DNA of 64,000 bases, taken from assembly GCF_004010195.1 (NCBI RefSeq), contig NC_057713.1, forward strand, positions 133,356,561 through 133,420,560. The letters are read 5' to 3'. This DNA is from Chiloscyllium plagiosum. Its lineage: Eukaryota. Position 1 is the stretch's first letter. Each line of letters begins with the position of its first letter. The position numbers and the translations under genes were made by a program. This document shows, piece after piece, positions 4,384-58,864 of this stretch. Under the pieces are notes generated by a model. That model was not told the DNA's origin and did not search any database. It saw only the letters and a program-made list of their open reading frames with translations.

Positions 4384-5092
4384 TCAGGAAAATTGATGTT
4401 TCAGGCCAGAGCCCTTTATCAGGAATGAAGCTGGGAGCCTTGGGAGTGGATGATAAATGGGAAGGGGGTGGGGCTGGAGGGAAGATAGCTGAGAGTGCAA
4501 TAGGTGGATGGACATGGGGGTAATGATGATAAGTTGGAGAGGAGGGTGGAGTGGACAGGTGGGAAGGAAGATTGGCAGATCGGACAGATCATGAGTGTGG
4601 CACCGAGTTGGAAGGTTGGATTTGCGATAAGGTGGGGGATGGGGAAATGAGGAAACTGGTGAAGTCCACATTGATGCTCTGGGATTGGAGGGTCCCAAGG
4701 TGGAAGATGAGGCATTCTTCCTCCAGGTGTTTGGTGATGAGGGAGTGGTGGTGGAGGAGGCCCAGGACCTGCATGTCTTCGGCAGAGTGGGAAGTGGAGC
4801 TGTAGTGTTCGTCCACAGGGCAGTGGGGTTAATTGGTGCGGGTGTCCCAAAGATGTTCCCTAAAGCGCTCTGCGAGGAGGCGTCCAGTCTCCCCAATGTA
4901 GAGGAGACCGCATCGGGAGCAATGGATACAATAAATGATATTGGTGGATGTGCAGGTGAAACTTTGATGGATGTGGAAGGCTCCTTTGGGGCCTTGGATG
5001 GAGGTGAGGGAGGAGGTGTGGGCGCAGGTTTTGCAATTCCTGCGGTGGCAGGGGAAAGTGCCAGGACGGGAGGGTGGGTTGTTGGGGGGCAT
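4384..5092 (-). mobile_element. Penelope-like retroelement (family A): GIY-YIG endonuclease end plus pLTR
   Basis: ORF 4829-5092 GTFPCHRRNCKTC...NIIYCIHCSRCGLLYIGETGRLLAERFREH, followed by a pLTR with a degenerate hammerhead core near 4390-4427. Runs into the N gap. Confidence 0.92.
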
Positions 5093-5912
5093 NNNNNNNN
5101 NNNNNNNNNNNNNNNNNNNNNNNNNNNNNNNNNNNNNNNNNNNNNNNNNNNNNNNNNNNNNNNNNNNNNNNNNNNNNNNNNNNNNNNNNNNNNNNNNNNN
5201 NNNNNNNNNNNNNNNNNNNNNNNNNNNNNNNNNNNNNNNNNNNNNNNNNNNNNNNNNNNNNNNNNNNNNNNNNNNNNNNNNNNNNNNNNNNNNNNNNNNN
5301 NNNNNNNNNNNNNNNNNNNNNNNNNNNNNNNNNNNNNNNNNNNNNNNNNNNNNNNNNNNNNNNNNNNNNNNNNNNNNNNNNNNNNNNNNNNNNNNNNNNN
5401 NNNNNNNNNNNNNNNNNNNNNNNNNNNNNNNNNNNNNNNNNNNNNNNNNNNNNNNNNNNNNNNNNNNNNNNNNNNNNNNNNNNNNNNNNNNNNNNNNNNN
5501 NNNNNNNNNNNNNNNNNNNNNNNNNNNNNNNNNNNNNNNNNNNNNNNNNNNNNNNNNNNNNNNNNNNNNNNNNNNNNNNNNNNNNNNNNNNNNNNNNNNN
5601 NNNNNNNNNNNNNNNNNNNNNNNNNNNNNNNNNNNNNNNNNNNNNNNNNNNNNNNNNNNNNNNNNNNNNNNNNNNNNNNNNNNNNNNNNNNNNNNNNNNN
5701 NNNNNNNNNNNNNNNNNNNNNNNNNNNNNNNNNNNNNNNNNNNNNNNNNNNNNNNNNNNNNNNNNNNNNNNNNNNNNNNNNNNNNNNNNNNNNNNNNNNN
5801 NNNNNNNNNNNNNNNNNNNNNNNNNNNNNNNNNNNNNNNNNNNNNNNNNNNNNNNNNNNNNNNNNNNNNNNNNNNNNNNNNNNNNNNNNNNNNNNNNNNN
5901 NNNNNNNNNNNG

Positions 5913-7045
5913 GGGGGGCCCAGGGAGATAGGGGGGGAAAGAGATTAATCTGAGACTGATACAGTTAGAACAGAAGAGAGTCAAACATCAGGGCAGGCAG
6001 GGACAAGGTCGGACTAATAAATTAAACTGCATTTATTTCAATGCAAGAGGCCTAACAGGGAAGGCAGATGAACTTAGGGCATGGTTAGGAACATGGGACT
6101 GGGATATCATAGTAAATCCAGAAACATGGCTCATGGATGGGCAGGACTGGCAGCTTAATGTTTCAGGATACAAATGCTACAGGAAGGATAGAAAGGGAGG
6201 CAAGAGAGGAGGGGGAGTGGCATTTCTGATAAGGGATAGCATTACAGCTGTGCTGAGGGAGGATACTCCCAGAAATACATCCAGGGAAGTTATTTAGGTG
6301 GAACTGAGAAATAAGAAAGGGATGATCATGATATTGGGATTATATTATAGACCCCCTAATAGTCAGAGGGAAATTGAGAAACAAATTTGTAAGGAGATCT
6401 CAGTTACCTGTAAGAATTACAGGGTCATTATGGTAGGGGATTTTAACTTTCCAAACATAGACTGGGACTGCCAAAGTATTAAGGGTTTAGGTGGAGAGGA
6501 ATTTGTTAAGTGTGTACAAGAAAATTTTCTGATTCAGTATGTGGATATACCTACTAGAGAAAGTGCAAAACTTGACTTACTCTTGGGAAATAAGACAGGG
6601 CAGGTGACTGAGGTGTCAATGGGGGAGCTTTTGGGGCCAGCGACCATAATTCTATTCGTTTTAAAATAGTGATGGAAAAGGATAGACCAGATCTAAAAGT
6701 TAAAGTTCTAAATTGGAGAAAGGCCAATTTTGACGGTATTAGGCAAGAACGTTCGAAAGCTGATTGGGGGCAGATGTTTGCAGGTAAAGAGATGGCTGGA
6801 AAATGTGAAGCCTTTAGAAATGAGATAACGAGAGTCCAGAGAAAGTATGTTCAGAGGAAGTGGTGGAGGCTGGTACAATTGCAACATTTAAAAGGCATTT
6901 GGATGGGTATATGAATAGGAAGGTCTTAGAGTAATATGGGCTGAGTGCTGGCAAATGGTACTAGATTAGGTTGGGATATCTGGTCAGCATGAACGAGTTG
7001 GATCAAAGGGTCTGTTTCCATGCTGTACATCTCTATGATTCTGAC
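5913..7045 (+). mobile_element. CR1 LINE: APE endonuclease region fused directly to the 3' end (RT deleted)
   Basis: CIYFNARGL, ETWL, GGGVA, YYRPPNS, MVGDFNFPNIDW, LDLLL motifs. Jumps near 6850 to EEVVEAGTIATFKRHLDGYM and the tail. Confidence 0.9.
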
Positions 7046-7564
7046 TGTAAGAGCAGAGAACCATCAATCTTAGTTCCAACCTGGCAGAGTGACTCAATTG
7101 GTCAGGATATTGCACTGAGAATATATCAGGAATTGGCAGTCTCCATGTTCCGGTGAGAAAGGTGTATTGTCCGTACAAATTCCTTATGTCAACATAAAGC
7201 AGGTATCCGGATGTTAGTATGTATGGCTCCTGGACATGCAAATACCGAAAGACTGTCTGAAAATCTTACTATTTACTTCTGGTATAATTCATAGTGCAGT
7301 CCAGATTATTTAATAAATGGTGACAAATTGCATGATTACATTAAGACTAGAATTCAGGAGGTGTTCTGAGGTTTGTAAGTATGGGCTGATTGAGCATGTT
7401 CAGCAAGCTACCTGAGGCAAATGGTCAAGGGGATGTATTATTTGATACAAATCCCAGACATAGGGATGAGTCAAATCCATCTAGCACTGAGACTGACCCT
7501 TCTGGTTTGCATGGCGGACAACATGTTTCAGGCCTGATGACGGGGTCCTGTTCAGGGGTTTACT

Positions 7565-7670
7565 CATCATTCCTTATGAAGGGCTTATGTCCGACACGTC
7601 GATTCTCCTGCTCCTCAGATGATGCCTGACTGGCTGTGCTTTTCCACTGCCACACTTTTCGAATTTACTC
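7565..7670 (+). mobile_element. Penelope family A solo pLTR, degenerate hammerhead core
   Basis: CATTCCTTATGAAGGGCTTATGTCCGACACGTCGATTCTCCTGCTCCTCAGATG... Confidence 0.8.
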
Positions 7671-7874
7671 CAAAGCAGCAGAATTGAGAACCTGTTTCAC
7701 CTGTGCTTCACGTTTTGAGACAACTTTCCCTTTCCAGGCTCAGCATGTGGCTTGGCCACCATCCATACCCAAGGGTGGTGGACATAAGCCCTTGCACAGA
7801 TTTGCAAGATTTCCCAACCAACAGGTTTCCCAACTAATACATCAAAGATATACATCAATACATCATTGAGTATA

Positions 7875-9782: not shown

Positions 9783-9807
9783 TTTGAACTTAGTGACAGG
9801 GCCTAAA

Positions 9808-13050: not shown

Positions 13051-13137
13051 TTACCATCATTCATATATAGATATGTTCATTAAAACCTGGAATTGGTCAC
13101 CCACTTGAGTGTAGACCTGACCTTACCAAAAGGTAAA

Positions 13138-13370
13138 ATCCGAGGAGCAGGAAAATCGATGTTTCGGGCAAAAGCTTTTCATCAGGAATACAGGCAGACT
13201 GCCTGCAGAATGGAGAGATAGATCAGGCACCCTGCCTCTGTTCCTGATGAAGGGCTTTTGCCCGAAATGTCGATTCTCCTGCACCTTGGATGCTGCCTGA
13301 ATTGCTATGCTCTTCCAGCACCGCTCTAATCTAGACTCTGGTTTCCAGCATCTGCAGTCATTGTTTTTAC
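13138..13370. mobile_element. Penelope family A inverted pLTR pair with 12-bp TSD
   Basis: Antisense and sense arms around a spacer of about 50 bp. CCAAAAGGTAAA at 13126-13137 and 13371-13382. Confidence 0.88.
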
Positions 13371-15515: not shown

Positions 15516-15916
15516 TTACGTTTCACAAATGTTTCCTATACTTTAAATGTTCCATTCGGTGCATTCCAAATACGGGCTTGCAAACAAATTGTTCCTTTTC
15601 TGGGGAAACAACTCTGAATCAAGGAGAGTATTTTGTTTTAAGACAATCTAAATGTGTTTTGGTTGTCTTCAATCAAGGACAAACAATGAGGTTTAGAGCA
15701 ATATGGCATGATCCTGGAAATTTCAGAGACAAATGTGGAAAGTCAGGAATGTTTCTCTGTGACCCAGGTATCATTATGATGAATAAAGCATGCTCTTTTG
15801 CATCTCCTTGTTATAAATTGCCTCATCCTAAATTCTGTAATGTTTCTTGACTGGGTTAAGGAGATGCTAATCCATCTTTCTGGTATTGCATAGTCAGGTA
15901 TGTTTAAATTTCTTGA

Positions 15917-16114
15917 CGTGGAGGAGCTGGTGTTGGACTGGGGTGTACAAAGTTAAAAATCACACAACACCAGGTTATAGTCCAACAGGTTTAATTGGAA
16001 GCACTAGCTTTCAGAGTGCTGCTTGTAGGTACCTGATGAAGGAGCAGCATTCCTAAAGCTAGTGCTTCCAGTTAAACCTGTTGGACTATAACCTGGTGTT
16101 GTGTGATGTTTAAC
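15917..16114. mobile_element. Penelope family B inverted pLTR pair
   Basis: Arms of about 75 bp (GTTAAAAATCACACAACACCAGG... / ...CCTGGTGTTGTGTGATGTTTAAC) around CTGATGAAGGAGCAGC. TAAATTTCTTGA / TAAATTCCTTGA flanks. Confidence 0.85.
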
Positions 16115-16639
16115 TAAATTCCTTGAAACAGCAACTTACAGAGTTTCGAGAAGTCTTTAGCAGAGGACAGCTATTTGCTTCCATATCCCCACCACTAGCC
16201 TTTTGGCCATTGGTTTGGTTGCAATATTGAGAACATGATGTTTTTGTGTACATAGATCAGGTGGCTAATACACACCATGAAGGGCTAGGGGTGAACGTTC
16301 AGTGACTGATGCTACATCAGTGCTCCTCTGTCTGATGTTACAGTCACAAATTATATTCTAAAACTTCAGCCTCATTTTGTAAACAGAAAGATGTTTCAGC
16401 TGCTCTACACCAACCTTATATTACTGTGGCCTAACTATTGTGGGAGCTTTAATAAAGGAAATACAGATTGCTTTTCAGAATGATATCATGCATATGCCTG
16501 ACATTTTTGTACAATGCCGTGGTATTGTACCACTACACCTGGGTTACTATATTTACCTCTTCTTCCAGGTGAGTGATTGTTTTAAAATATAGTTTCACAG
16601 TACTCCTGTTATCATTATTTAATTGTGAAGCTTATTAGA

Positions 16640-17527: not shown

Positions 17528-17756
17528 GTGAAGTGAGGGACTGCAGATGCTGGGGATCAGAGTCAAAATGGATGGTGCTGGAAAAGCACAATTGGTCAGG
17601 CAGCATCTGAGGAGCAGGAGAGTCGACATTTCAAGCATAAACTCTTCGTCAGAAATGTGCACATTCCTGATGAAGGGCTTATGCTCAAAACATCGATTCT
17701 CTTGCCCGTCGGATGCTGCCTGACCGGCTGTGCTTTTCCAGCACCACATGTTTTGA
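17528..17756. mobile_element. Penelope family A inverted pLTR pair
   Basis: Palindrome centred on AATGTGCACATT (about 17654-17665). Degenerate TSD CCCTCCACCTATAG / CCCTGCACCTTTAG. Confidence 0.85.
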
Positions 17757-18246
17757 CCCTGCACCTTTAGATGTTGTATTTAAACTTTAAACTGTAGTTT
17801 TGTACCTCCTTCGAGCATCTGTTATTCTACAAAGATCGTGGGGGTTAAATTTGAAATCCCCCGAAAGTGACGAGCATGCTGAGTGTAGTTCAGGAAGTAT
17901 GCAACTCCAATCCTTGTTCACGGCAAGGATTTCAGTCCTTAACCAGTGCAAGGCGTGTTGTTGCTTGGTTAGATGCTTTAAAGCTGATCAATCATTATCT
18001 TCTCCTAAAGCAAGTTTGGCCTTCTTAAAGTCAGCCTATAGTTCCGAATGGCAACGTGCACCATGACTGGAGCAGGTGCTGGAAGGGATTCTGACCTGGG
18101 AATGATTGAAGAATGGTACAATATGGAGAACGAAGGTTTGGAATAGAGATGCTTTGGATCCACAGGAAACAAATTATTTTGGAAACCCAGTGGCAACTGA
18201 CCAGCAAGAGTCAAATTCTGATGATATGGATATGGTGTCAGAAAGG

Positions 18247-22965: not shown

Positions 22966-23225
22966 TCTCACAATCAGTGGAGTTTTGGGGTGTGGGTGGG
23001 GGTCGGTGGGAAGACATGGTGGGGGAGGATTGCAAGCAAGCCATTGGAAAAGGCTTTGAAGTGGATCAGTTTGGCAGGCAGAACAAACAATGTTTTCTGA
23101 AACAAGGGTCAATGCTCAGGTGACACAATCTGTTTAAAGCCTCACTATCGCATTTGGGATGAGAGTTGGGGGTAGCACAAGTGAATCAGGAATGGCTCAG
23201 GGACAACACCTCAGCTTGTGGATTC

Positions 23226-24551
23226 AGGGAGCACTATAGTGTTGGACAGTACAACAGTGTTGGAGATTACTACAGTGTTGGAGAGCTCTACAGTGTTGAA
23301 AAGTACTACAGTGTTGGAGAGTACTACAGTGTTGGAGAGTACTACAGTGATGGAGAGTACTACAGTGATGGAGAGTACTACAGTGTTGGAGACTACTACA
23401 GTGTTGGAGAGCTCTACAGTGTTGAAAAGTACTACAGTGTCGGACAGTACTACAGTGTTGGAGAGTACTACAGTGTTGGAGAGTACTACAGTGTTGGAGA
23501 CTACTACAGTGTTGAAGAGCTCTACAGTGTTGAAAAGTACTACAGTGTTGGAGAGTACTACAGTGGTGGGGAGTACTACAGTCTTGGGAGTACTACATTG
23601 TTGGAGAGTACTACAGTGTTGGAGAGTACTATAGTGTTGGAGAGTACCACAGAGTTAGAGAGTACTATACTGTTGGAGAGTACTATAGTGTTGGAGAGTA
23701 CCACAGAGTTAGAGAGTACTATACTGTTGGAGAGTACTACAGTGTTGGAGAGTACCATAGTGTTGGGGAGCACTACAGTGTTGGAGACCACTACAGTGGA
23801 GGAGAGAACTACAGTGTCGGACAGTACTAGTGTTGGAGAATACTACAGTGTTGGAGAGTACTACTATGTGGGAGAGCACTACAGTGTTGGAGAGAACTAC
23901 AGTGTTGGGGAGCACTACAGTGTTGGGGTGTATTACAGTGTTGGGGAACACTACAGTGTTGGGGAGTATTACCATGTTGGAGAGCACTACAGTGTTGGGG
24001 AGCACTACAGTGTTGGAGAGCACTACAGTGTTGGAGAGCACGACAGTGTTGGAGAGTACTACAGTGTTGGAGAGTACTACAGTGTTTGGGAGCACTTCAG
24101 TGTTGGAGAGTACCACAGTGTTGGGGAGCACTACAGTATTGGGGAGTACTACAGTGTTGGGGAGGACTGCAGTGTTGGTGAGTACTACAGTGTTGGAGAG
24201 TACTACAGTGATGGGGAGCACTACTATGTTGGAGAGTACTGCTGTGTTGGGGAGCACTACAGTATTGGGGAGTACTACAGTGTTGGGGAGTACTGCAGTG
24301 ATGGGGAGCACTACTATGTTGGAGAGTACTGCAGTGTTGGAGAGTACTACAATGATGGGGAGCACTACAGTGTTGGAGAGTACTACAGTGTTGGGGAGCA
24401 CTACAGTATTGGGGAGTACTACAGTATTGGGGAGTACTACAGTGTTGGGGAATACTAAAGTGATGGGGAGCACTACAGTGTTGGGGAGTACTGCAGTGTT
24501 GGAGAATACTACAGTGTTGGAGAGTACTACAGTGATGGGGAGCACTACAGT
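23226..24551. repeat. 18-bp minisatellite, about 73 units, consensus GTTGGAGAGTACTACAGT
   Basis: Direct tandem periodicity. Reads (GEYYSV)n, (LESTTV)n and (WRVLQC)n. Variant units form higher-order blocks. Confidence 0.97.
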
Positions 24552-24584
24552 TTTCCAGTTTACACTGTTCTAAATAGATTTTAA

Positions 24585-24715
24585 ATCTGTCTGGATGTGA
24601 AATAAACCACATTTCACCTCCTCTCTTAGATAAAGAGTGTTCATTCTTATGTCCTGGATAACATTTATCACTCAACTAATATTGTTAAAAGAAATTATTT
24701 GATCTTGGCATTGCT
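24585..24715 (+). mobile_element. DeuSINE-like remnant downstream of the minisatellite
   Basis: CTGGATGTGAAATAAACC...TGTCCTGGATAACATTTATCACTCAAC resembles the recalled Deu domain. Confidence 0.45.
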
Positions 24716-25119: not shown

Positions 25120-25320
25120 ACAAAAAGTAGAAATTGTTGGAGGTCTGGCAGCATCTGTGGGAAGAGACGCAGAGCTAATGTTTTTCGTTCAGTGACCCTT
25201 CCTCGCTGGATTTGCAACATTAACTCTGTTCCATCGCTCCACAGATGCTGCCAGACCCACTGAGTTTCTCTAGCAATTTCTGTCTCTGATCAGATTTCCA
25301 CCATTGGCAGTTCTTTGTTT
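25120..25320. mobile_element. Family C inverted pair (presumed Penelope pLTR)
   Basis: GGTCTGGCAGCATCTGTGG ... CCACAGATGCTGCCAGACC inverted arms. Confidence 0.75.
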
Positions 25321-26518: not shown

Positions 26519-26735
26519 GGAAAATGTGAGGACTGAAGATGTTGGAGATCTGAGTCAAGAGTGAGGTGTTGGAAAAGCACAGCAGGTCAGGCAGCAGCCA
26601 AGGAGCAGGAGAGTCGACGTTTCAGGCATAAGCCCTTCATCGGGAATTCCTGATGAAAGGCTTATGCCTGAAACGTCAACTCTCCTGCTCCTTGGCTGCT
26701 GCCTGACCTGCTGTACTTTTCCAGTATCACACTTA
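26519..26735. mobile_element. Penelope family A inverted pLTR pair (no spacer)
   Basis: Near-perfect arms of about 75 bp centred on GGAATTCC (26643-26650). Confidence 0.9.
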
Positions 26736-26764
26736 TTGCAGGAGTACACCAAGATTGATGAAGG

Positions 26765-26852
26765 GTTCTGAATAAGGGTCACTGGACTCAAAACCTTAAC
26801 ACCGCTTCTCTCCGTGGATGTGGCCAGACCTGCTGAGTTTCTCCAACAATTT
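26765..26852 (+). mobile_element. Family C pLTR-like element (presumed Penelope)
   Basis: TTCTGAATAAGGGTCACTGGACTCAAAACCTTAAC...CCAGACCTGCTGAGTTTCTCC. Confidence 0.75.
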
Positions 26853-35066: not shown

Positions 35067-35764
35067 GTGGGTGTCTCTACATTACAAGGACTCCTTAAGG
35101 CAGCTCACCACCTTCCCTAGGAAATTAGGGATGGATAATTAATGCTGGCCCAGCCAGTAATCACCATATCCCATGAATAGACCGAGAGAAAAAAAACCTG
35201 TTTGTATCAATGAGTTGAATTTAGTAAATACAGCCCTCTCTTGTCCAGCCTTCTCTCCCAAGATAACAAGCCCATTTCAGGTTCAAGTCTATGACATTGC
35301 TCTGAACTACTTCCAACACACTCACTTCCTTCATTAAATATGGAGATCAATACTGCATATAATACTCCAGTGTGGTCTCACCAGTGCCCTGAAACATCTG
35401 AAGCATAGTCTTCCTCTTTTTGAATTCAACTGATAACATTCTGTTAGCAATAGATATCCTCTTCTGGACTGGCACACATAGGAGTTAAGACCCATAGTAA
35501 TGTGGTTGATTTTAAACTGCCCTCTGAAATCATGGACAATTAGGGACCAGTAACGAATGCTAGTCTTACCAGTGATGTACAGATCCCATGAAAGAATAAC
35601 AAAAAGTAATTCTGCAATTTCCACCCCTATTTCCCTCAGCATCTTATCTGGTCCAAATGACTTCTCAATTTTAGACACACAATCTATTGGACCATAATAA
35701 GACTGGAAGCTATAGGAGCTGAAATAGGCCATTCAGCCCATCCAGTCTGCTCTGCCATTCAATC

Positions 35765-35937
35765 AGGTCAGAAGTCACACAATACCAGGTTATAGCCCCA
35801 AAAGGTTTATTTGAAACCATGGACTTTCAGAGCAGGGGCAGCGCCCCAAAAGCTGGTGATTTCAAACAAACCTGTTGGGCTATAACCTGGGGGAGTGTGA
35901 TTTTTGACTTTGTCCACCCCAGTCCAACACCGGTCTC
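35765..35937. mobile_element. Penelope family B inverted pLTR pair (degenerate)
   Basis: CCAGGTTATAGCCC...TTTGAAA / TTTCAAA...GGGCTATAACCTGG arms. Confidence 0.75.
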
Positions 35938-36697
35938 TCAAAATTTGAGATCATGACATACTCAGGAAACTACAGATCTATTTGCCTGCCTGGTGCATCA
36001 TTCATTTACACTTTCCTAATATTGTCTGAAACTGCAAGGTGACCTTATCCGAAAATGTGGGATGGAAAAAATGTTCAACTTTACGGGCACAGCCCAGTGA
36101 ATTCAACAAGTGCTCAAATTCTTCAGTCTGGAGCTTGAGATGTTCTAATCTATCCCAATTCCTATAGACATGGCAGTTCAAAACAACAAGAAGTGGCCTG
36201 AATTTCCCAGATAGCTCAGGATGGGATCAAGGTACCCTTCCACGTCCTTAATTATTAGATTATTAACTTCAAAATAAATTTAAAAGTTAAATAAATAAAG
36301 ACTTACTATCTACTGTAATTTTGTGCTGATATTATTTTATTAAGAAGGTAAACTTAAATATATATTTATTTAATTTTAATTATTCTTAAAAATCTGATCT
36401 TGATTTACTAAAGGTAAGTTCAGATAGAGACAAATTTTGTTACATGGGACCAAAAGTATGATTAAGGAATAAGGATTAGAATGACCAAAGATGTTTTTCA
36501 AGAGATTATGTGTTGGACACATAACAAGACAATACAGAGAAGAATTGATGCTGCAGAATTTTAGTTTTTGAAGTGAATAATAAAGATATTTTTTAATAGT
36601 TATGCTACAATGGAAGAGGTGATAACAAAATCTGAGTCTAAATGAAGTCTGCTCACTCAGATCAGGAAAAGACAGTTGGGGTACAGATAGGCATCGA

Positions 36698-39600: not shown

Positions 39601-39622
39601 AAAGCTGGGCATCCAGGAGGAA

Positions 39623-39849
39623 GCTGGAAATGTGTTGCTGGAAAAGCGCAGCAGGTCAGGCAGCATCCAGGGAACAGGAGAATCGACGTTTTGGGCATAA
39701 GCCCTTCTTCAGGAAGAAGGGCTTCCTGAAGAAGGGCTTATGCCCGAAACGTCGATTCTCCTGTTCCCTGGATGCTGCCTGACCTGCTGCGCTTTTCCAG
39801 CAACACATTTCCAGCTCTGATCTCCAGCATCTGCAGACCTCACTTTCTC
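39623..39849. mobile_element. Young Penelope family A inverted pLTR pair with 13-bp TSD
   Basis: Arms of about 95 bp nearly identical. CATCCAGGAGGAA at 39610-39622 and 39850-39862. Confidence 0.92.
39722..39758 (+). ncRNA. Minimal type I hammerhead ribozyme motif (family A)
   Basis: CTGAAGA(39726-39732)-A-GGGC-TTAT-GCCC-GAAA-C-GTC. Predicted cleavage after 39753. ACGT palindrome replaces stem III. Activity not demonstrated. Confidence 0.7.
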
Positions 39850-39968
39850 CATCCAGGAGGAACCCAGGGCCATCAGCAGCAGCAGAATTGTAATTCACTG
39901 CAAACTGTAACCTCGTGATCTAGCATGGCACTTACTTTACCAATAGGAGTAGTAGAGGGCTCCACTAC

Positions 39969-40003
39969 CACCTGATGAAGGAGTGTCGCTCCGAAAGCTA
40001 GTG
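39969..40003 (+). ncRNA. Minimal type I hammerhead ribozyme motif (family B)
   Basis: CAC-CTGATGA-A-GGAGT-GTC-GCTCC-GAAA-G-CTA-GTG. Stem I CAC/GTG and AGCT palindrome. Lies in a family B pLTR (39966-40090). Confidence 0.7.
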
Positions 40004-40094
40004 TGCTTCCAATTAAACCTATTGGACTATAACCTGGTGTTGTGTGATTTTTAACTTTGTACACCCCAGTCCAACACCAGCATCTCCAAATCCT

Positions 40095-40965
40095 TTATCC
40101 ATGTTTTGGCCTCAATTGCTTTCTGTGGCAGAGGAATCCACAGGTTCACCACTCTTCAGGTGAAGGTATTTCTCCTCACCTCAGTCCTAAATAGTTTTCT
40201 CTGTATCACAGAGTCATAGAGATGTACAACACATAAACAGACCTTTTGATCCAACTCGTCTGTACCGACTGGATATCCTAATTTAATCTAATCCCATTTG
40301 CCAGCACTTGGCCCATATCCCTTCCGATTCGTATACCTGTCCACATGCCTTTTAAATGTTGTAATTGTACCAGCCTCCACCACATCCTCTGGCTGCTCAT
40401 TCCATACACGTACCACCCTCTGCGTGAAAAAGTTGCCCCGTAGGTCCCTTTTATATCTTTCACCTCTCACCCTAAACCTATACCCTTTCATTCTGGACTG
40501 CCCCACCCCAGGGAAAAGATTTTGTCTATTTATCCTAACCATGCTCTTCATGATTTTATAAACCTCAGCCTCAAATGCTCCAGGGATAACAGCAATAGCC
40601 TGTTCAACCTCTCCCTATAGCTCAAACCTCCAACCCTGGTAACATCCTTGTAAATCTTTTCTGAACCCTTTCAAGTTTCATAACGTCTTTCCGATAGGAA
40701 GGAGACCAGGATTGTACACAATATTCCAAAAGTGGCCTATAGCTGCAACATGTCCTCCCAACGCCAAACTCAACGCACTGACCAATAAAGGAAATCATAC
40801 CAAACGCCTTCTTCACTATCCTATCTACCTGTGACTCCACTTTCAAGGAACTATGAACCTGCACTCCAAGATCTCATGTTCAGCAACACAGGATCTTACC
40901 ATTAAGTGTATAAGTCCTGCTAAGATTTGCCTTTCCAAAATGCAGCACCTTACATTTATCTAAAT
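40095..40965 (-). mobile_element. CR1 LINE 3' fragments
   Basis: ORFs 40288-40551 and 40622-40864 (RPLLEYCVQSWSP, FFTQRVVRVWNE). Confidence 0.9.
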
Positions 40966-42194
40966 GGGATAACATGATGTCAATGATCACATGATTGCAG
41001 GTATCAAAGAGATGTAGTTGCAGGTTGGAGCTGGGGACTGAGTATTCCAGAATATATAGATAATTGTCAGGTATCTGGGAAGCTACCCCAATACCTTCCA
41101 TTGCACCAGCTGCAGGTGAACCACCATGGCAAACTGGGATGGGGCTTGTGGGTGAAAGGACCACCTTCAACCATGTGATAGATGTCTCTGGTATAAAACC
41201 AATGAACATGTGGGCAGTGTGCATGCACTGAATGACTCAGAGCGGACAGATCATCAGCATGTTGGCACAGTCATTCTGCTGCTTGAAGCACTGTCAAGCC
41301 CAGTTGGGCTTGTTAGGGTGTGCACGGGGTCTGTTGGTGACTTGCTGCATATGTACAATATCACCGTTAATACTTGCCATCAGCTAAGAAGATACAGAGC
41401 AGGAGGTCTTAGAGATCAATGCCGGGGTCTAGGTGCTTGGAAATGCAGCCCCAACTCCCCAATCGCCAGCAGCCCAAAACACTCTCTGTAACTCACTACT
41501 TTAACAGTGCTTGGCCACAATGCAATAGAGTGTCACAAAGTAAACTGATGACTGAGATCATGCAATATTCCATATTAATGTGAATGACCCACCTTTATCC
41601 ATTCACCTGTTGTCCCTGTCTTCCACAGTGACAGCAGCGTTGCTGGTGAAGTCTCATGGTGGCTGCAGATAGCTTTGCGAGATCACCAGCTGCAGCTCTC
41701 ACCCTGGCAGGCCTGGCTGACCAACAGTACCACATCAAAGGTGTCTGACAGTAAGGGTACTGAGGGACTGCTAAGGGATATCAGTGCTGAGCTGTGAGCA
41801 GTGCAGGAAGCCAATGATGCAGAGATAGGATATAACACCGACAGATGCATTATCTGACCTTGACAGCTTATGTGACTGTTTTGAAGCCTGGCATCCAGGT
41901 TCTCACAGCTTGACCCCGGCATTGATCTCTAAGACTACCTGCTCTCCCAGTCTTTTGCTCACGTGCTTAATGGCATTTGGGCTCTCTGTGGATGTAGGAC
42001 ATCACTCGTCTTGTCCATCTTCAGCACCGAGACCTCCAGTGCTCCACGTTTGCGATCTCCCATAGTTGTGCCAAGGTGGGGTGGGAAGCCCTGCAGGAAG
42101 AAGTGAGTGGAAATGCAGAGAGGAAACCCCTAGAGACAGAAAGAAGGTTAGATGGACAAAGGGATGGTTAATAGTTAGCCAGAGAAGAAGAAGA

Positions 42195-49000: not shown

Positions 49001-49029
49001 AGTATCTGCTGGAGGAAGAAAGTGAATGT

Positions 49030-49524: not shown

Positions 49525-49625
49525 CCAAAAGAGAAAATGCTGGGAAATCTCAGCAGGTCTGGCAGCATCTGTAAGGAGAGAAAAGAGCTGACGTTTCGAG
49601 TCCAACTGACCCTTTGTCAAAGCTG
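49525..49625 (-). mobile_element. Family C-related pLTR-like element
   Basis: Reverse complement AGCTTTGACAAAGGGTCAGTTGGACTCGAAACGTCAGCT. Confidence 0.7.
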
Positions 49626-50498: not shown

Positions 50499-50865
50499 GA
50501 GAAGTGAGGACTGCAGATGCTGGAGAGTCAGAGACAAAACGTGTGGCACTGGAAAAGCACACCCGGTCAGATGACAGGTTTCGGGCATAAGCCTGTCATC
50601 AGGAATGCCCACTTTAAAGAGCTTTTCCTCCTCCCTCCACAAGTAGTGAGTCTCAGTGAGTCACTCTCTCACTGCACCCCCCAGGTCATCTCCTCTGCCC
50701 TGAAGCTCTTCAAGCCACGTCCTGAAGCAGACTCACTACCACAGCCACGTCTCCTTCCTGAGCATCTGCCACATTCCTGATGAAGGACTTATTCTCAAAA
50801 TGTCACCTCTCCTGCTCCTCAGATGCTGCCTGAACGGCTGTGCTTTTCCAGCGCCACATCTTTTG
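50499..50865. mobile_element. Penelope family A inverted pLTR pair with spacer of about 160 bp
   Basis: TSD ACCTCAGTACTTAAG / ACCTCAGTATTGAAG. Spacer reads ...SSALKLFK.. and resembles a Penelope ORF 5' end. Confidence 0.85.
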
Positions 50866-51000
50866 ACCTCAGTATTGAAGTTCTGGGCAAGAGTGTTCTT
50901 AGGCAGCCAATAGATGTTAAGATGTCACAGAAGTAGGCCATATAGCTCACTGAGTCTGACCTTCTTCACCCACCAATCAAGGTTCTTTAGTGATCGAATA

Positions 51001-52315
51001 ATAGAGTCATAGAGATGTACAGCATGGAAACAGACCCTTTGGTCCAACCCGTCCATGCCGACCAGATATCCCAACCCAATCTAGTCCTACCTGCCATCGC
51101 CCAACCCATATCCCTTCAAACCCTTCCTATTCATATACCCACCCAAACGCCTTTTAAATGTTGCAATTGTACCAGCCTCCACCACTTCCTCTGGTAGCTC
51201 ATTCCATACATGGACCACCCTCTGACTGAAAAAGTTGCCCCTTAGGTCTCTTTTATATCTTTCCCCTCTCACCCTAAACCTATATCCTCTAGTTCTGGAG
51301 TCCCCCACCCCAGGGAAAAGACTTTGTCTATTTATCCTATCCATGCCCCTCATGATTTTGTAAACTTCTATAAGGTCACCCCTCAACCTCTGACGCTCCA
51401 GGGAAAACTGCCCCAGCCTGTTCAGCCTCTCCCTATAGCTCAAATCCTCCAACGCTGGCAACATGCTTGTAAATCTTTTCTGAACCATTTCAAGTTTCAC
51501 AACATCTTTCTGATAGGAAGGAGACCAGAATTGCACACAATATTCCAACAGTGGCCTAACCAATGTCCTGTACAGCTGCAACATGACCTCCCAACTCCTG
51601 TACTCAATACTCTGACCGATAAAGGAAAGCATACCAAATGCCTTCATCACTATCCTACCTACCTGCAACTCCACTTTCAAAGAGCCATGAACCTGCACTT
51701 CAAGGTCTCTTTGTTCAGCAACACTCCCTAGGACCTTACCATTAAGTGTATAAGTCCTGCTAAGATTTGCTTTCCCAAAATGCAGCACCTCACATTTATC
51801 TGAATTAAACTCCACCTGCCACTTCTCAGCCCATTGTCCGATCTGATCAAGATCCCGTTGTAATCTGAGATAACCTTCTTCGCTGTCTCTCCCTGAATCC
51901 CATACGATCCACCTTTACTAACCAGTTTACCATACCGAACCTGTCAAAGGCCTCGCTAAATGCCATGTAGACAATGTCTACTGCTCTGCCCTCATCAACT
52001 TTCTTGGTTACATTCTCAAAAACCTCAATCAGGTTTGTCAGAACATGATTTCCCATGCACAAAACCATGTTGACTATCCCTATTCAGTCCTTACGTCTTC
52101 AATTGCTGTAAAACCTGTCTCTCAGAATCCCCTCCAACAACATATCCGACCAATGATGTCAGGATCATTGGTCTACCATTCCCTGGCAACCTTTCTTAAA
52201 TAACAGCACAACTTTAGCCAACCCCCAGTCTTCCGGTACCTCACCCATGACTGCAGATGATGTAAATATATCTGCTAGGGTCCCTGCAATTTATTCCTTA
52301 GCTTCCCACAATGTC
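51001..52315 (-). mobile_element. CR1 LINE (ORF2 C-terminal half, internal deletion)
   Basis: 242-aa ORF 51087-51815 and RT motif ORF 51847-52068 (VDIVYMAFSEAFD). Confidence 0.93.
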
Positions 52316-53204
52316 CTGTGGTGCACTGCTGCTGGGAATGTTTGCCCCAGCTGAAGAGATCAAGTTCATGAGGAATACATGGAACCTGGAAGACTTGCCC
52401 AGCTTGGAAAACATCTCCTGCGTAAGGTTCACACTTAAAATCTGTTCTGGGATCAGAAGTTGCTCAATTGGGAAAATAAAGAAAAACAACAAACCACGGG
52501 AAATGTTTTTTGAGAACACTTTAATTTTCCATGACAATCTAATCAGAGACATTGCAGCACACCTCTGGAGCTGGTGGGTCTAAAACCCAGAACCTCCTGG
52601 TCCACAGGCAGGACACTGTGCCACAGAATCTGGACAGTGTATACTTACAGGACAATGTGATGTATAACCATTGTGGGATTTCTTCTTCATGCAAAAATGC
52701 AAATACGCCATCTCTTTTTTGCAAATTAAATTGCCTTCAAAAGAAGAAAACGGTGTTTAATAAAAGAGTGTTTATTTTCTAGTCATTTATGATTACAAGT
52801 TCCAAAATGTGAAAACTCCTGTCATTTAGTTAACTAATAGCTACAATTCAAAGTCATTTTTAAAAGTTATTGTTCTGCCTGGAGATTAGGGCATTAATTT
52901 CAAGGAAACAAAGACACACAAATGTGTGTTTACTGTCCTTGCCCTTACTATCTGCACAATGTGACTATCATGTTATCTAATGTCTCAAACTCACTTCATT
53001 ATCATTGGCCATTTGTTACTGACCGCATTGATATCATCTTCAGTGAACCTTCTCAAGAGCAATTAGGGCTGAATAACAAGTGCTGGTCTAGTCAGAGGCT
53101 CCCCCATCCAACGACTATTTCCATTCCCATGGGGGAACACTTCAAACATGAGGATGTAGGAGTCTGGGAGGACCCGTGTGTTTGTAGCTGCCTACCATTA
53201 TTCA

Positions 53205-54177
53205 AGGTTAAAAATCACACAACACCAGGTTATAGTCCAACAGGTTTAATTGGAAGCACTAGCTTTCGGAGCGTTGCTCCTACATCAGGTGGTTGTGGAG
53301 GACACAATTGTAAGGCACAGAATTTATAGCAAAAGTTTACAGTGTGATGTAACTGAGATTATACATTGAAAAATACCTTGATTGTCTGTTGAGTCTTTCA
53401 TCTGTTCGAATACCATGATAGTTTCACTTCTTTCATCTGTAAATCACAAAACCTTTTTTTTAAAAGTTGCATTCTCAGGTTAACTGTAACAATTGGTGTT
53501 AGCTAGGCAATATGTTGAAGGTGTTAGCCCCATGTGTTCTCTGTCTATGCCATGGTGTTTAGATTGATTCTAATCTAAAAAGTGAGATAACAGAGTTTTA
53601 CATGAATTCATGCAGTTTTTGAGCAAAGTACAATGTAACTCTGCAAGTACAAATTCACCCAACAAAGGTATATGTATATGTGTGTGTGTCTATCTGGATT
53701 GGGGGGTTGTGAGTGTGAGAGAGAGTGTATGTGTGTGTGTATGTGGGTATAGAGTGTCTTACATCTGTAAGGGGGTGCATGTGTGAGTGTGGGAGTGTGT
53801 GTATCTGTAAGGGTGTGTGTGGATGTCTGTGTGTGCATCTGTGTGTGTGTGTCCGTGTGAATGTGTGTGTGTTGTGTGTGTGTGTGTGTGTGTGAGTGTC
53901 CATGTGTAGGGGTGTCTGTGTGAGTACAGTGCAATGATGGTCACCTGTAGTGTGACATGAACCCAAGGTCCTGGTTGAGGCCCTCACTATGGGTACTGAA
54001 CTTAGCTATCAGCCTCTGTTCGGCTACGTTTTGCTGCTGCCTGTCCTGAAGTCCGCCTTGGAGGATGGTCACCTGAAGGCCCGAGGTCGAATGTCCTGGA
54101 CCGTGTTCCCCAACTGGGAGGGAACCCTCCTGTCTGTTGATTGTTGTGCGGTGCCCATTCATCCATTGCCGTAGCCT
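53205..54177 (-). mobile_element. Penelope-like element, family B (GIY-YIG end, (CA)n-rich 3' UTR, pLTR)
   Basis: ORF 53941-54162 MNGHRTTI...PVGEH...AEQRLIAKF...GLNQD. pLTR with hammerhead core (reverse complement) at about 53255-53292. Confidence 0.88.
53668..53925. repeat. Imperfect (TG)n microsatellite inside the Penelope 3' UTR
   Basis: Direct dinucleotide repetition. Confidence 0.9.
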
Positions 54178-54182
54178 TCGAT

Positions 54183-54267
54183 TACTGATGAAGGGCTTTT
54201 GCCTGAAACATCGATTTTCCTGCTCCTCGAATGCTGTGCTTTTCCAGCACCACTCTGATCTTGACTC
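54183..54267 (+). mobile_element. Penelope family A pLTR
   Basis: CTGATGAAGGGCTTTTGCCTGAAACATCGATTTTCC. Confidence 0.8.
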
Positions 54268-54573
54268 AGAAAGCTGTGAGCTGAATATGTGAGTATCCTT
54301 CAGCTATTTGGCACAATATCCCTCCTTCAGTAGTCCTTCTCACTCAGGAATACTTTTGTCAAACAGATTTTAAGATTGTTTCCCTCATCCCTAAGTCTAA
54401 ATTATCCATAAATATTGAAAACAAAAGTGAACCAATCTCTCACGTCTCCTGAACATTAGTTCTAATCCTGATTTTATGTGACTGTTGAGCACATAATATG
54501 TTTTCTTCTTAAAAAAACGTCTAATATCTAATAAAAAGTATTACGATATTTTACTATAGGCAGCTGTACTGTT

Positions 54574-54668
54574 AATTGAGGAAGAGTCACTTAACCTGAA
54601 ATGTTAATTCTGATTTCTCTCCACAGATGCCAGATCTGCTGAGTTTTTCCAGCAATTACAGTTTTTGG
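54574..54668 (+). mobile_element. Family C pLTR-like element (presumed Penelope)
   Basis: TTGAGGAAGAGTCACTTAACCTGAAATGTTAA...CTCTCCACAGATGC. Confidence 0.65.
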
Positions 54669-55864: not shown

Positions 55865-56185
55865 GTGGTGATGTCAGTGGACCACCAATGCAGAATCCCA
55901 GGCTAATGTTCTGGGGACATTGGCTTCAATCTTACCATCATTGTCGGGGTAATTGAATTTTTTAAAAAACTTGAACTAAAACAAAAACAGACAAATGGTG
56001 ACAATATAATCGTGTTGTAAAAGTCCACCTGTTTCACTAATGTCCCTTAGGGTAGGAATCTGCCATCCTTACCTGGTCTGGCCTACATTAGACTCCAGAC
56101 CCACAGCAATGTGACGACTCTTAATTGCTCTCTGGGTAATTAGATTCAGGTAATAAATGCTTGGCCAGCCTGTGGCGCCCAGAGT
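55865..56185 (+). mobile_element. tRNA-head SINE (second family)
   Basis: Homologous to 48535-49000. Confidence 0.7.
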
Positions 56186-56305
56186 GCAAATAACAGGATG
56201 TGGACAGTACTGACTGGACCAGCAGTTATTGCCTTGCCTTAATTGTCCTTGGCAAGGTGATGGTAAAATGTAATCTTAAACTGCCCTGGTCCAAGGGAGG
56301 ATTGG

Positions 56306-57010
56306 TGAAATAACCCCGCAGAGGCTGGTATCCCATCACCAAGACACCCTTTATTTACATGTGCCAGCCAGCTCAAAGTCAATCCATGAACTGAGGAGAT
56401 TTGGAAACTCCTGGGTTTTTTTCCAGCTCTCAGAGTGAGCAGAAATTCTGATACTCCTGTTTATTTTTTTTCTTTGTGTGTGTGCAGGTGTGAGACACAG
56501 TGAAAGACACAAGGTGCGCGAATCTTTATTCAGTTTCCACAACCAGGAAGAATGGAAACACCCGAGTGGCCAATGACAAGCAGTGCCCTTCACATCGAAG
56601 GGCAATGCTGTGTGATCAAACAGTGAAGGGGAGGGTAGGGATTAAATCAAAATAGAATTGGAGGGAGAAATAATGCACTCCACTCCCTGCAGCGCCCACC
56701 TCTCCCTGAACAACTCCAGGGTGTTGGTGGAGACCACGTGCTCCTTCTCCAAGGACACCCGGGCCCTAACGTAACCGCGGAAGAGGGGCAGGCAGTTGGC
56801 CCTAACGACCCCCTCCACAGCCCGCTGCCGGGACCTGTTAATGGCCAGTTTGGCCAGGCCCAGGAGCAGACTCACGAGGAGGTCTTCAGATCTGCCCTCT
56901 CCCCTCTGTACTGGGTACCTCTTGTTTATATCTGCCAGCCAAGGCTCCCTGATTGGTCCAGGTTAACAACCCCAGTAAAGGATCACACTGTCAATGAGAT
57001 CCACATGGTT
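56306..57010 (-). mobile_element. Solo LTR (same family as 38338-38580) split by a Tx1/L1 insertion
   Basis: CCATCACCAAGACACCCTTTATTTAC... and ...GGCTCCCTGATTGGTCCAG halves. Confidence 0.6.
56465..56918 (-). mobile_element. Tx1/L1-clade LINE 3' fragment
   Basis: ORF 56642-56875 LLLGLAKLAINRSR...RVSLEKE...FRERW, 3' UTR with AATAAA and A-rich tail. TSD CTCCTGTTTAT / CTCTTGTTTAT. Confidence 0.8.
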
Positions 57011-57065
57011 CCAATTGATACAGCAAAATAAAAGTCTAGGCAATAGATGTTAGTAGATAAGTACA

Positions 57066-57314
57066 GGGTTTTGTGTCTGTGTGGAATTTGCACATTCTCC
57101 CTGTGTCTGCGTGGGTTTCCTCCGGGTGCTCCGGTTTCCTTCCACAGCCCAAAGATGTGCAGGTCAGGTGAATTGGCCATGCTAAATTGCCCATAGTGTT
57201 AGGTGCATTAGTCAGAGGGAAATGGGTCAGGGTGGGTTACTCTTCGAAGGGTCGGTGTGCGGACTTGTTGGGCCGAAGGGCCTGTTTCCACACGGTAGCT
57301 AATCTAATCTAATC
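57066..57314 (+). mobile_element. 5'-truncated HE1-like V-SINE
   Basis: V-domain, (AATCT)n tail, TSD TAAGTACA at 57058-57065 and 57315-57322. Confidence 0.9.
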
Positions 57315-57820
57315 TAAGTACAAAGTAAATGCTGGACTGTGTTAAAATATAGCATAAAACGATTGGATCGTCATAGAACCTCACTTCATTGTTTTGTTTT
57401 TGATGCACTTCGATTTTATTCCATAAGTGAGTTTATCTTCAGTTCTCATTTTGGTTATGCAGAGAATTCGTTTCAATTAAACCATCAGCTTGTCACTGTT
57501 CATTAGATGCACCTTTGAAAAAAACCCGAAGCATTAGAATTATACAACTATACTGTATACATTTAATAGGCTAGCTGACCTGTACCAATTCTCTAATATC
57601 ATTAAATATTGGAGATCACTGACGATATAACTAAATTAGTGGAGCAGCTACATGAGGGGATTACATTGAAACTACACCATTGTTATACAAATGTTTCAAT
57701 CTGTCACTTATGCAGGAGAAAGAAGCTTTAGTTTTTTGAAGGTTGGCATACCATGAATTCCAGGTAGTTGAGTGGAAGGCAATAGAGGAAGTTTCTTTTC
57801 TAAAACATTTGTTAGCTCCT

Positions 57821-57892
57821 CTGGAAGAGCACAGCAATTCAGGCAGCATCCGAGGACAGGCAAAATCGACGTTTCGGGCAAAAGCCCTTCAG
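57821..57892 (-). mobile_element. Penelope family A pLTR fragment flanked by a 56-bp direct duplication
   Basis: 57765-57820 is identical to 57894-57949. Confidence 0.9.
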
Positions 57893-58671
57893 ATAGTTGA
57901 GTGGAAGGCAATAGAGGAAGTTTCTTTTCTAAAACATTTGTTAGCTCCTGATGTCAGTTTCACTGAATTTCAATGATGAGTTTTTGTGTGTTATACAAAT
58001 TGCCGATGAGCACCTGCAGTGAATAATTTCTATGTTGGCATTAGCCTTTCCTTTTAGCTGCTGGATAATTTCAGGATTTGTCACATTTCTTGAAAAGCAT
58101 CCTTGACTCTCTGGAGTGCAAAGGTCCTATAAGTGTAGCTGGTGAACTCTTTGTGTTCTTTCAAGATCAGCCTGTATAAAGTCAACATCTGACTGCTGAT
58201 GGATACCTCCATCGCCATTCCCTGGTCTTTTACTGATAGCATTCCTTTAGGGATGGAAACTGTTCTGTGTGAGATTCCAGTCTTGTGTTAATGTTCCAAC
58301 AAAGAGCCATTTTGGACTTGAAATGGTAGTTCTTTCGCTTCAAATGTCACCAGACCTGCTGAGTTTCTCCAGTGTTCTGTTTCTAATCTCACATAATGTT
58401 TATTCATAATTAAACTCTCAGTTATGTCTTTCAGCAGAAGATCAGAAGAGGATACAGAGAGGAGTGGGTGACTGAGGGACCCTGAGATAGGCAGTTGGCA
58501 TCATTAAAGGAGTGGACAGGCGAAGGACCCTTCAGCAGAGCTAGATTATAGCAGCTGTACAGAATTGGCACTTGCTCTACTGCAGAAAAATGAGCTAACT
58601 GTTTGTTGAGTGTCTGGTAAATAGTTCATGCCTTTCTACTCTTAAGTTTTAACACAACTGTTAAACTGTTA

Positions 58672-58864
58672 TAACTCACATGACACCAGGTTATACTCCC
58701 ACAGGTTTATTTGAAATCACAAGCTTTCGGAACGCTACTCCTTCACCTGATGAAAGGTCAGTGCTCTGAAAGCTTGTGATTTCAATTAAATCTATTGGAC
58801 TATAACCTGGTGTCGTGTGAGTTCTAACTTTGTCCACATCTGTGCAACACCGGCACCTCCACAT
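58672..58864. mobile_element. Penelope family B inverted pLTR pair
   Basis: CCAGGTTATA...GAAATCACAAGCTTTC / CTGATGAAAGG...GAAAGCTTGTGATTTC...TATAACCTGG. Confidence 0.85.

Follow-up and report, generated by a model that had tools for sequence, protein, structure and literature searches.

Short dispersed hammerhead motifs of Chiloscyllium plagiosum are pseudo-LTR ends of three Penelope-like element families

Penelope-like elements (PLEs) have been known since 2014 to carry a minimal hammerhead ribozyme, and the motif described here is that published motif and not new as such. In the accessible part of its description from metazoan PLEs (PMC4209133), it is of type I, lacks helix III, and has a palindrome at 15.2-16.2, an extra base between 9 and 10.1, a G10.1-C11.1 pair and a short stem I; several families occur per genome, mostly as single dispersed copies with some close opposite-strand pairs, and a U3-A8 core variant exists. 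These traits recur in the repeats of C. plagiosum, which differ in a stem II of 4-5 bp and in number, since we extrapolate ~1.1 million family copies genome-wide as against ~4,000 in coelacanth and ~9,000 in Xenopus, counted with another descriptor. Sharks are not named in that part of the paper, whose supplement may list cartilaginous fish, and the accessible text of a 2020 review calls the in vivo role of minimal hammerheads a mystery (PMC7761336). Other PLE insertions, as presented in parts of three papers (PMC3846280, PMC8557442, PMC2377424), have head-to-head pseudo-LTRs, a tail of 30-40 bp at one end only, target duplications and partial tandems, as do those reported here. The Poseidon element PAc of Anolis (PMC11167929) carries its hammerhead upstream of two tail-defining reverse transcriptase (RT) start sites and uses mainly unprocessed RNA as template, both of which appear to hold here; in vitro, both strands were extended from the two start sites and the ribozyme was protein-assisted. 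Unlike PAc, the present families have a CX2-5CxxC linker, and the family A ORF apparently begins ~40 nt past the tail instead of within the ribozyme. Non-LTR retrozymes also combine PLE-derived type I hammerheads with high copy number (bioRxiv 10.64898/2026.07.22.740005 and PMC7761336, accessible parts), but they form head-to-tail tandems. Our searches of the open-access literature yielded nothing on PLE hammerheads in sharks, on twin priming by PLEs or on chimeras of U6 with PLEs.

The window, i.e., the whole stretch of DNA analyzed, comprises 64,000 nt (GCF_004010195.1, NC_057713.1:133,356,561-133,420,560, forward strand). A profile search found 42 family copies in it (A, 22; B, 9; C, 11), or one per 1.5 kb; the original prediction was ~30 copies in 64 kb, about every 2 kb, and its motif is real. 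Genome-wide, copies occur once per ~3.2 kb and four motif patterns have 112,857 exact matches. A perfect core with 4/4 stem II pairs was seen nine times in the window vs. 0.1 per shuffle, and 22 times vs. 1.5 per shuffle when one mismatch was tolerated (10 shuffles). The family A motif at 39726 (GGGC-nnnn-GCCC/ACGT-C) and the family B motif at 39972 (GGAGY-nnn-GCTCC/AGCT-A) stand as first read. The A hammerhead spans 39722-39757 (+; C3 at 39726, stem I here 2 bp) with a predicted cut after C39753, and the B hammerhead spans 39968-40004 (+; C3 at 39972) with a predicted cut after A40000. The C copies placed at 26765, 36770 and 49590 were recovered at 26768 (+), 36794 (-) and 49620 (-), and the third, thought to be degenerate, is a C' hammerhead (49586-49624, -) with a compensated U3:A8 pair, stem I AGCU/AGCU and a predicted cut after 49590. 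Core, stem II and palindrome were all retained in only 4 of the 42 copies: 39726 and 26650, which are arms of hairpin-forming inverted pairs, and 39972 (B) and 49620 (C'), which are intact solos. The invariant core was present in only 13 of the 42, and 87% of random copies were broken; with 21-24 of 185 random copies predicted to be intact, the genome would hold ~130,000-150,000 such copies. The remaining solos, all decayed, lie within 7570-58381 (C3 or first match at 7573, 9878, 12954, 15424, 19135, 26768, 27884, 33328, 33451, 34936, 36794, 42319, 42501, 45422, 48117, 48863, 54576, 57891 and 58300). A search of 127 frames in the window for a host gene yielded only a LYRM4 pseudogene.

Covariation between lineages is seen in both stems, I and II, as well as in the palindrome and at the core pair 3:8. 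The core CUGANGA...GAAA..UH is kept in all four lineage types, with U3:A8 in C'; the catalytic positions are all invariant, and N17 is C, A or U, never G. The compensated U3:A8 pair defines subfamily C', which includes the copy near 49590; among 1,200 matches, the first 100 contained 93 with this pair. The reduced palindromic stem III reads ACGU in A, C and C' and AGCU in B, and is predicted to allow dimers. In an alignment of 15 distinct, hand-picked A, C and C' rows, 90.9% of cells were paired and two-sided changes occurred at 6 of 11 pairs (slid controls, 14-43%). This tool-based count left out B, which MAFFT had placed one column off and which was assessed by script; the covariation is that of four lineages, and the shuffle of the tool ignores relatedness. 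Compensatory changes in the lineage consensus pairs, from few independent lineages, support stem II and the open stem I, and together with the alignment they bear out the earlier reading of a fixed core with a compensating stem II, as well as its assignment to the minimal type I hammerheads of PLEs. Covariation of stem I is an addition to that reading. Its three families are upheld, but A and C are not dissimilar, since they have a common tail and the C-linked endonucleases are ~34-59% identical to those of A. The check it suggested with Rfam hammerhead models gave nothing: no hammerhead family was among 15 matches at E<=5, and the motifs have no helix III. The miRNA matches in that scan were merely the palindromes. 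A covariance model built from A, C and C' copies gave 26 window matches at E<=1, none of them a B copy, and thus provides no independent test for B.

The repeats are the pseudo-LTR ends of three GIY-YIG PLE families. A-type RT and GIY-YIG frames terminate at family A, and a B-type ORF with RVT_1 (E 1.3e-8) terminates upstream of family B; at seven loci a divergent GIY-YIG precedes family C, so that RT is demonstrated for A and B, and for C only the endonuclease part. [quoted passage not shown] The CX2-5CxxC linker, a Neptune feature that, in the part of PMC8557442 available, is common to Neptune and Nematis, precedes the C-terminal GIY-YIG in A, B and C frames. Pseudo-LTRs from partial tandems, an inverted 5' copy and a one-sided tail are all present, and in four partial-tandem copies (L222, L233, L238, L245) the tail runs on into the ORF. 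In the window, a family A pseudo-LTR remnant with mutated core and broken-off tail (4384-4426, -) lies downstream of a broken C-terminal ORF part (4640-5092, -) with a CxxxxCxxC linker and GIY-YIG, an in-frame stop near 4829 and an upstream part consisting of N. A truncated B element terminates 3' in a family B pseudo-LTR with mutated core and short tail (53200-53292, -); the C-terminal half of the endonuclease of this element (53944-54180, -) is followed by a CA-rich spacer. The GIY-YIG ORFs originally predicted beside A and B, at 4829 and 53941, hold by different routes: the frame at 4832-5092 (-) matched GIY-YIG in Pfam at E 2.8e-4 and 21.6 bits, just below the 22.6 cut-off, while that at 53944-54174 (-) had no match in the Pfam search and was identified through relatives that are C-terminal ends of RT-bearing ORFs.

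The proposal that the repeats are separate non-autonomous elements found no support, as longer A, B and C copies each extend into a GIY-YIG ORF. Since short copies share no sequence upstream of approximately -5, they look like truncated insertion products. The alternative is a self-propagating, SINE-like family with internal start, ribozyme and RT-binding tail; most copies are indeed 95-135 nt with sharp ends, family RNA is present in poly(A) reads, and long-tail solos contain all known cis parts. However, each subfamily checked (A1, A1b, A2, B, C, C') has members with an endonuclease frame upstream and no short-only subfamily was seen among the sampled copies. In family B, moreover, a used poly(A) site lies 3' of the ribozyme and before the RT start sites: at 39972, ATTAAA (40012-40017, within 40012-40032, +) is followed by non-templated poly(A) in family reads past 40029/40032, and the tail (40033-40092, +) has two discrete 3' ends at ~40055-40058 and 40092. 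We therefore regard the SINE-like reading as rather unlikely. Of 84 A copies with intact start, 68 extend upstream by <=14 nt, and copy-to-copy agreement drops at -4/-5, with a blunter boundary in A2 and B. Judging from these ends and the initiator consensus, transcription likely starts ~4 nt before the core. A splice acceptor behind the 5'-end cluster was rejected; its AG is kept in C' copies and has no common position in A or B.

About half of all copies, and 18 of the 42 in the window, belong to head-to-head pairs within one family. An unselected DNA sample of 583 kb contained 44 head-to-head, 2 tail-to-tail and 7 tandem pairs of the same family, so the tandem arrays typical of retrozymes are rare. 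Inserts usually consist of just the two ends and measure ~200-250 bp, with centres that vary from copy to copy. Tails stop at either of two fixed 3' ends, which are separated by 35-40 nt. Of 53 unselected pairs, 49 combined a long tail with a short one (p 7e-11), as did 34 of 43 pairs of a second, gene sample. Target duplications of 12-15 bp flank palindromic insertions; we detected them around 65 of 126 pairs, compared with 4 in controls, and around just 14 of 65 solos. The usual restriction to the two ends and the counted tail and duplication rules set these insertions apart from those in the accessible parts of PMC3846280, PMC8557442 and PMC2377424. One example is the A insertion at 39610-39862, with a short-tail arm (39623-39716, -), a long-tail arm (39722-39849, +) and a 13-nt duplication (39610-39622 and 39850-39862), the RNA of which is predicted to fold into a 95-bp hairpin. 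Long and short arms also form the A insertions at 26520-26736 (12-nt duplication; core intact at 26650, +) and 17532-17761. A further palindromic A insertion lies at 13133-13361, and a head-to-head A pair with a 175-nt centre at 50501-50871. Family B contributes 15913-16116 (left end approximate), 35764-35945 (old) and 58666-58868 (right ends approximate), and family C 25125-25320 (old, right end approximate). Cross-family chimeric insertions, such as A capping B at 54185/53288, were rejected: none of 14 head-to-head pairs between families carried a target duplication, and the A copy at 54181-54270 (+), head to head against the truncated B element, has none in common with it.

With the same identity of the repeats, the inverted arm could instead come from fold-back or self-priming, with either the first cDNA or an antisense RNA as substrate, the latter proposed for rotifer elements in the accessible part of PMC3846280. 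Palindromes at junctions, arms of the same subfamily in 13 of 14 pairs, and the fit of two-thirds of long-plus-short pairs (75/114) agree with this, as does locus L322, where an identical rare U6 junction in both arms indicates that both came from one molecule. However, in 29 of 114 pairs, and again in 6 of 34 pairs of the gene sample, the start of the long-tail arm comes at least 10 nt after that of the short-tail arm. Such long-tail arms lack sequence held by their partners, and the partners in turn lack the distal tail; fold-back of one cDNA cannot produce such pairs. Three of this class (L052, L087, L003) have target duplications. Arm geometry thus argues against fold-back alone, which we consider improbable as the general explanation.

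Whether the motif cuts in cells was approached through chimeras and reads. RtcB ligates U6 to 5'-OH ends, and in U6/LINE-1 chimeras U6 ending in a U tract is joined to a retroelement 3' part at variable junctions (accessible part of PMC6789731). Here, 3 of 39 U6 copies were joined to family A at the first base past the predicted cut, whereas starts near it were seen in no more than 5 of 229 ordinary A copies. Two further U6 copies join within the endonuclease frame, so that 3 of 5 U6-PLE 3' junctions lie at the predicted cut. Joining exactly at the predicted scissile bond, although seen in a small number of copies, suggests, indirectly, cleavage in vivo. Ordinary copies show no 5'-end peak at the cut site, and 3,830 poly(A) reads from one run ran through both cut sites with no drop in depth and no pile-up of starts or ends; such libraries would largely miss cut products. 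Most templates were likely uncut, and integrated copies derive from uncut RNA. The motif might then be a non-cleaving protein-binding or promoter structure, as integration of uncut RNA would allow; moreover, insertion in vitro needs no cleavage and anole RNA-seq showed no cut ends (PMC11167929). This has little chance of being correct considering the invariant catalytic positions, the exclusion of G at N17, the compensated 3:8 pair and the U6 junctions at the scissile bond.

The original prediction held that dispersed ribozymes could cut nascent transcripts, in which case they would influence host gene expression; ~130,000-150,000 predicted-intact copies and the U6 junctions might speak for this. 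We found no sign of harm to host transcripts. The suggested check for sense-strand depletion was negative in gene bodies (562 kb), with 38 sense and 35 antisense solos; intact solos were 6:3 and intact copies in pairs 12:6, few copies with low power, and LINEs as control were likewise unbiased (45:37). Copy density in gene bodies equals that elsewhere. Between paired arms, core and tail diverge alike (7.2% vs. 8.8%, 14 pairs), indicating neutral decay after insertion. The lower core mismatch to subfamily consensus (3.6% vs. 8.6%) was rejected as a sign of host selection, being confounded by lineage differences and ascertainment. Half of the copies are locked in hairpins, reads cross the cut sites, and single minimal motifs were not cleaved in vitro (accessible part of PMC4209133); the construct 39700-39780 proposed for such an assay is itself predicted to fold into a hairpin that buries the core. 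We give host cutting very little credence.

We therefore favor, at a probability of roughly 70%, the reading that the repeats are short, 5'-truncated pseudo-LTR-plus-tail insertions of three endonuclease-positive PLE families, whose ribozyme likely serves the RNA of the parent element and not the host. In the proposed cycle, the element protein would cut the target as a staggered double-strand break, and each of the two DNA ends would start cDNA synthesis on the same element RNA, using the distal start site of the tail in one case and the proximal site in the other; the identical U6 junction in both arms of L322 fits such a common template. The majority of cDNAs would run off the RNA 5' end ~4 nt before the core and two would become joined head to head, one-armed copies retaining a single cDNA. 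In the germ line, some of the element RNA would likely be cut by the ribozyme, with probable help from element protein or dimer formation, and inserted copies would then decay neutrally. A fuller version, combining germ-line cutting and double priming with a circular, re-ligated B template for long copies, is conceivable but on balance doubtful. If it is true, linear family B mRNA would give only stubs, as its poly(A) site precedes the RT start sites, the B ribozyme would supply the circular template needed by long copies, and this genome would preserve a million events from the cycle of Penelope elements.

The value of these repeats lies in material on the origin of inverted ends and tails. 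Their ends give counted rules that an existing in vitro system could test: pairs combine a long tail with a short one, the target is duplicated over 12-15 bp, 5' ends cluster near -4, U6 is joined at the cut, and poly(A) follows it. A vertebrate genome apparently tolerates ~130,000-150,000 predicted-intact motifs, and its short hairpins, which number several hundred thousand, are a potential source of double-stranded RNA.

Hammerhead motifs were present where the original prediction had placed them, in a family A repeat at 39726 (predicted cut after 39753) and a family B repeat at 39972 (predicted cut after 40000). A descriptor scan returned nine sites in the window whose core is perfect and whose stem II has four pairs (0.1 per dinucleotide shuffle, 10 shuffles) and 22 sites when one mismatch was allowed (1.5 per shuffle, again 10 shuffles); no Rfam hammerhead model matched the window. 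Profile HMMs located 42 window copies (A, 22; B, 9; C, 11), and core, stem II and palindrome were all kept in only four of them, fewer than had been claimed. Intact solo copies include those at 39968-40004 and 49586-49624 (-) and, in locus L124, a young family A copy near 1092. The three families had also been called dissimilar, which is correct for B only, as A and C have a common tail. In the 3.56-Gb genome, exact patterns matched 87,506 times for A, 23,796 for B, 355 for C and 1,200 for C', a subfamily of C with the core pair U3:A8, and reversed-pattern controls gave 0 matches each. An unselected sample, drawn at even spacing from three chromosomes as sixty stretches of 10 kb each (583,478 non-N bases), held 185 copies, or ~1.1 million genome-wide by extrapolation. 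The core was kept in 61 of these copies, core plus stem II and palindrome in 24, and stem I as well in 21, from which about 130,000-150,000 copies genome-wide would be predicted to be intact.

Clusters built on tail sequence alone gave four structural lineages (nine of 11 clusters were parsed; two old ones were not). Stem II is G-C, G-C, G-C, C-G in A; G-C, G-C, A-U, G-C, C-G in B; and G-C, G-C, G-C, U-A, C-G in C, with one G-U in C'. Stem I is C-G, U-A, U.U or U-A, A-U in A; C-G, A-U, C-G in B; U-A, U-A, G-C, A-U in C; and U-A, C-G, G-C, A-U in C'. The lineages carry either ACGU or AGCU as their palindrome. Among the first 100 C' matches listed (1,200 in total), U3:A8 replaces C3:G8 in 93, C3 being the first core C; the other seven have C3 with A8, and G8 occurs in none. 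By a pair-count tool, 90.9% of cells were paired in a hand-picked A/C/C' alignment, with two-sided changes at 6 of 11 pairs (slid controls, 14-43%), and 80.3% were paired in the 26 matches from the window after fitting to the model. The number of independent lineages behind these counts is small.

A GIY-YIG frame lies at 4832-5092 and has ~100,000 candidate relatives. Longer A-type copies carry reverse transcriptase (RT) motifs, a CxxxxCxxC linker and the endonuclease, and end at family A; at four loci, in a partial-tandem form, the tail continues into the ORF start. The frame at 53944 forms the last part of a second ORF with RT and endonuclease, which terminates upstream of family B, and family C is accompanied at seven loci by a divergent endonuclease of its own. 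Because of these associations, A, B and C are all pseudo-LTRs of endonuclease-positive Penelope-like elements, and the independence of the repeats had been overstated. By their linker, the elements would be of the Neptune/Nematis type (PMC8557442). The Penelope-type minimal hammerhead had been named correctly: the ribozyme is the min-HHR, for which PMC4209133 already describes, as here, the extra base, the palindrome, single copies scattered through genomes and a variant with U3-A8. Two sampled genomic loci (L077:5663-5908 and L135:1732-1941) hold a fourth kind of GIY-YIG sequence, more distant and sharing 33-35% identity with A, which may represent another Penelope lineage.

The window also contains a processed LYRM4 (ISD11) pseudogene at 57970-58220 (-), identified as such because it is intronless with a premature stop and a frameshift; an 18-bp-period minisatellite at 23163-24675 with long repetitive open frames on both strands; and decayed LINE fragments, which we take to be CR1/L2-type, at 2270-3096, 5932-6914, 40288-40873 and 51087-51914. 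Further, unrelated inverted repeats of 40 nt, 470 nt apart, at 41396-41945 are possibly a DNA transposon remnant.

The original prediction missed a palindromic architecture, of which the window holds nine same-family head-to-head pairs. Same-family pairs within 300 nt in the unselected sample were head-to-head in 44 cases, tail-to-tail in two and tandem in seven. Copies of each family stop at one of two discrete 3' ends separated by 35-40 nt, and one long plus one short tail was found in 49 of 53 unselected pairs (p 7e-11 against one half), in 34 of 43 from a second sample (gene bodies) and in 114 of 126 over all loci scored. Target duplications, mostly of 12-15 bp, surrounded 39/65 A, 17/29 B and 9/32 C pairs (shifted controls, 4), and were found in 14/65 solo copies. 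An inverted end and a one-sided tail are known features of Penelope-like elements (PMC3846280 and PMC8557442).

Fold-back of a single cDNA is excluded for the class of pairs in which the start of the long-tail arm lags that of the short-tail arm by 10 nt or more (29 of 114; the reverse in 10). One palindromic insertion (L322; G000:C7:109202394-109202893) lies inside a 14-bp duplication and has one long and one short tail; both of its arms carry U6 at the predicted cut, and this shared rare junction indicates that both came from one molecule. In vitro, both strands were extended from two RT start sites of an anole element (PMC11167929). Given this extension, the arm geometry and the single-molecule origin of L322, the simplest reading is twin priming on one RNA, which would yield a head-to-head pair with long and short tails. 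In RNA sequencing run X19, 13 reads spanned a strand-switch joint at 39723/39733, so palindromic pairs are transcribed through. At a pair centre (50602-50777) and near 2095 in locus L065, the centre or upstream flank contains a fragment similar to the beginning of the ORF, fused to the pseudo-LTR, which suggests internal deletion or a template jump.

Of 48 U6 matches we scored 39, the others being five almost perfect gene copies, a neighbour and a cluster of three matches. In three of the 39, U6 is followed by a family A sequence that begins with the base just past the predicted cut, each time of a different subfamily; in two more, the junction lies within the endonuclease frame. No more than 5 of 229 ordinary family A copies start near the predicted cut. 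Since U6 abuts that position and RtcB joins U6 to 5'-OH ends (PMC6789731), the junctions are indirect evidence pointing to cleavage in the germ line. Many other U6 copies (loci L305-L343) share one fusion partner, the head of a tRNA-like SINE, and the copy at L307 is fused to a tRNA. In a single-cell run with 3,830 poly(A) reads, depth did not drop at either cut and read ends did not accumulate, which counts against frequent cutting, although such libraries would miss most cleavage products. The same run placed poly(A) behind 40029/40032 in 298 + 341 reads, which may derive from a few loci; B transcripts thus end after the ribozyme and before the RT start sites. ATTAAA or AATAAA lies ahead of the poly(A) position in 52 of 62 B copies.

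No peak of 5' ends was found at the cut site among ordinary family A copies, suggesting that the template is usually either uncut or re-ligated. Where the start of a family A copy is intact, the copy extends at most 14 nt upstream of C3 in 68 of 84 cases, and agreement falls between -4 and -5 upstream of the core, most clearly in C' (0.78 to 0.43), less steeply in C (0.56 to 0.44) and subfamily A1 (0.62 to 0.44), and more bluntly in subfamily A2 and B. In our own reading, these ends would be cDNA run-off from a predicted transcription start near -4, where the sequence presumably matches an initiator. At one of 30 loci (L218:633), the 5' end of a long A element lies just after the long-tail end, making the element exactly one unit in length, as a circular template would give.

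Finally, the proposal that these repeats cut host nascent transcripts gained no support. In 59 stretches (L246-L304; 561,581 bases) inside myosin and ion-channel genes of known strand, density equalled the genome average (173 copies) and sense-strand depletion was not seen (solos, 38 sense and 35 antisense; intact solos, 6 and 3); LINEs in the same gene bodies were likewise unbiased (45:37), so this comparison is insensitive. Comparison of the two arms of a pair showed similar divergence in core and tail (7.2% and 8.8% at non-CpG sites, 14 pairs, p 0.63), and in paired copies the core is buried in a long hairpin. The stretch 39700-39780 likewise forms a hairpin. Family B solos in the gene bodies numbered 7 sense and 1 antisense (p 0.07; a small number), contrary to the bias expected if the poly(A) signal were harmful. 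Family A reads of run X19 over 39740-39820 (+) had strand-skewed A>G changes, including core A14 and A15.1 (55/511 and 65/521 in one orientation, 11/368 and 10/377 in the other; contig runs, under 1%), possibly ADAR editing of hairpins. The hammerhead-bearing repeats are a real feature of an already known kind, and their interest lies in the mechanistic clues they carry, not in the motif itself.
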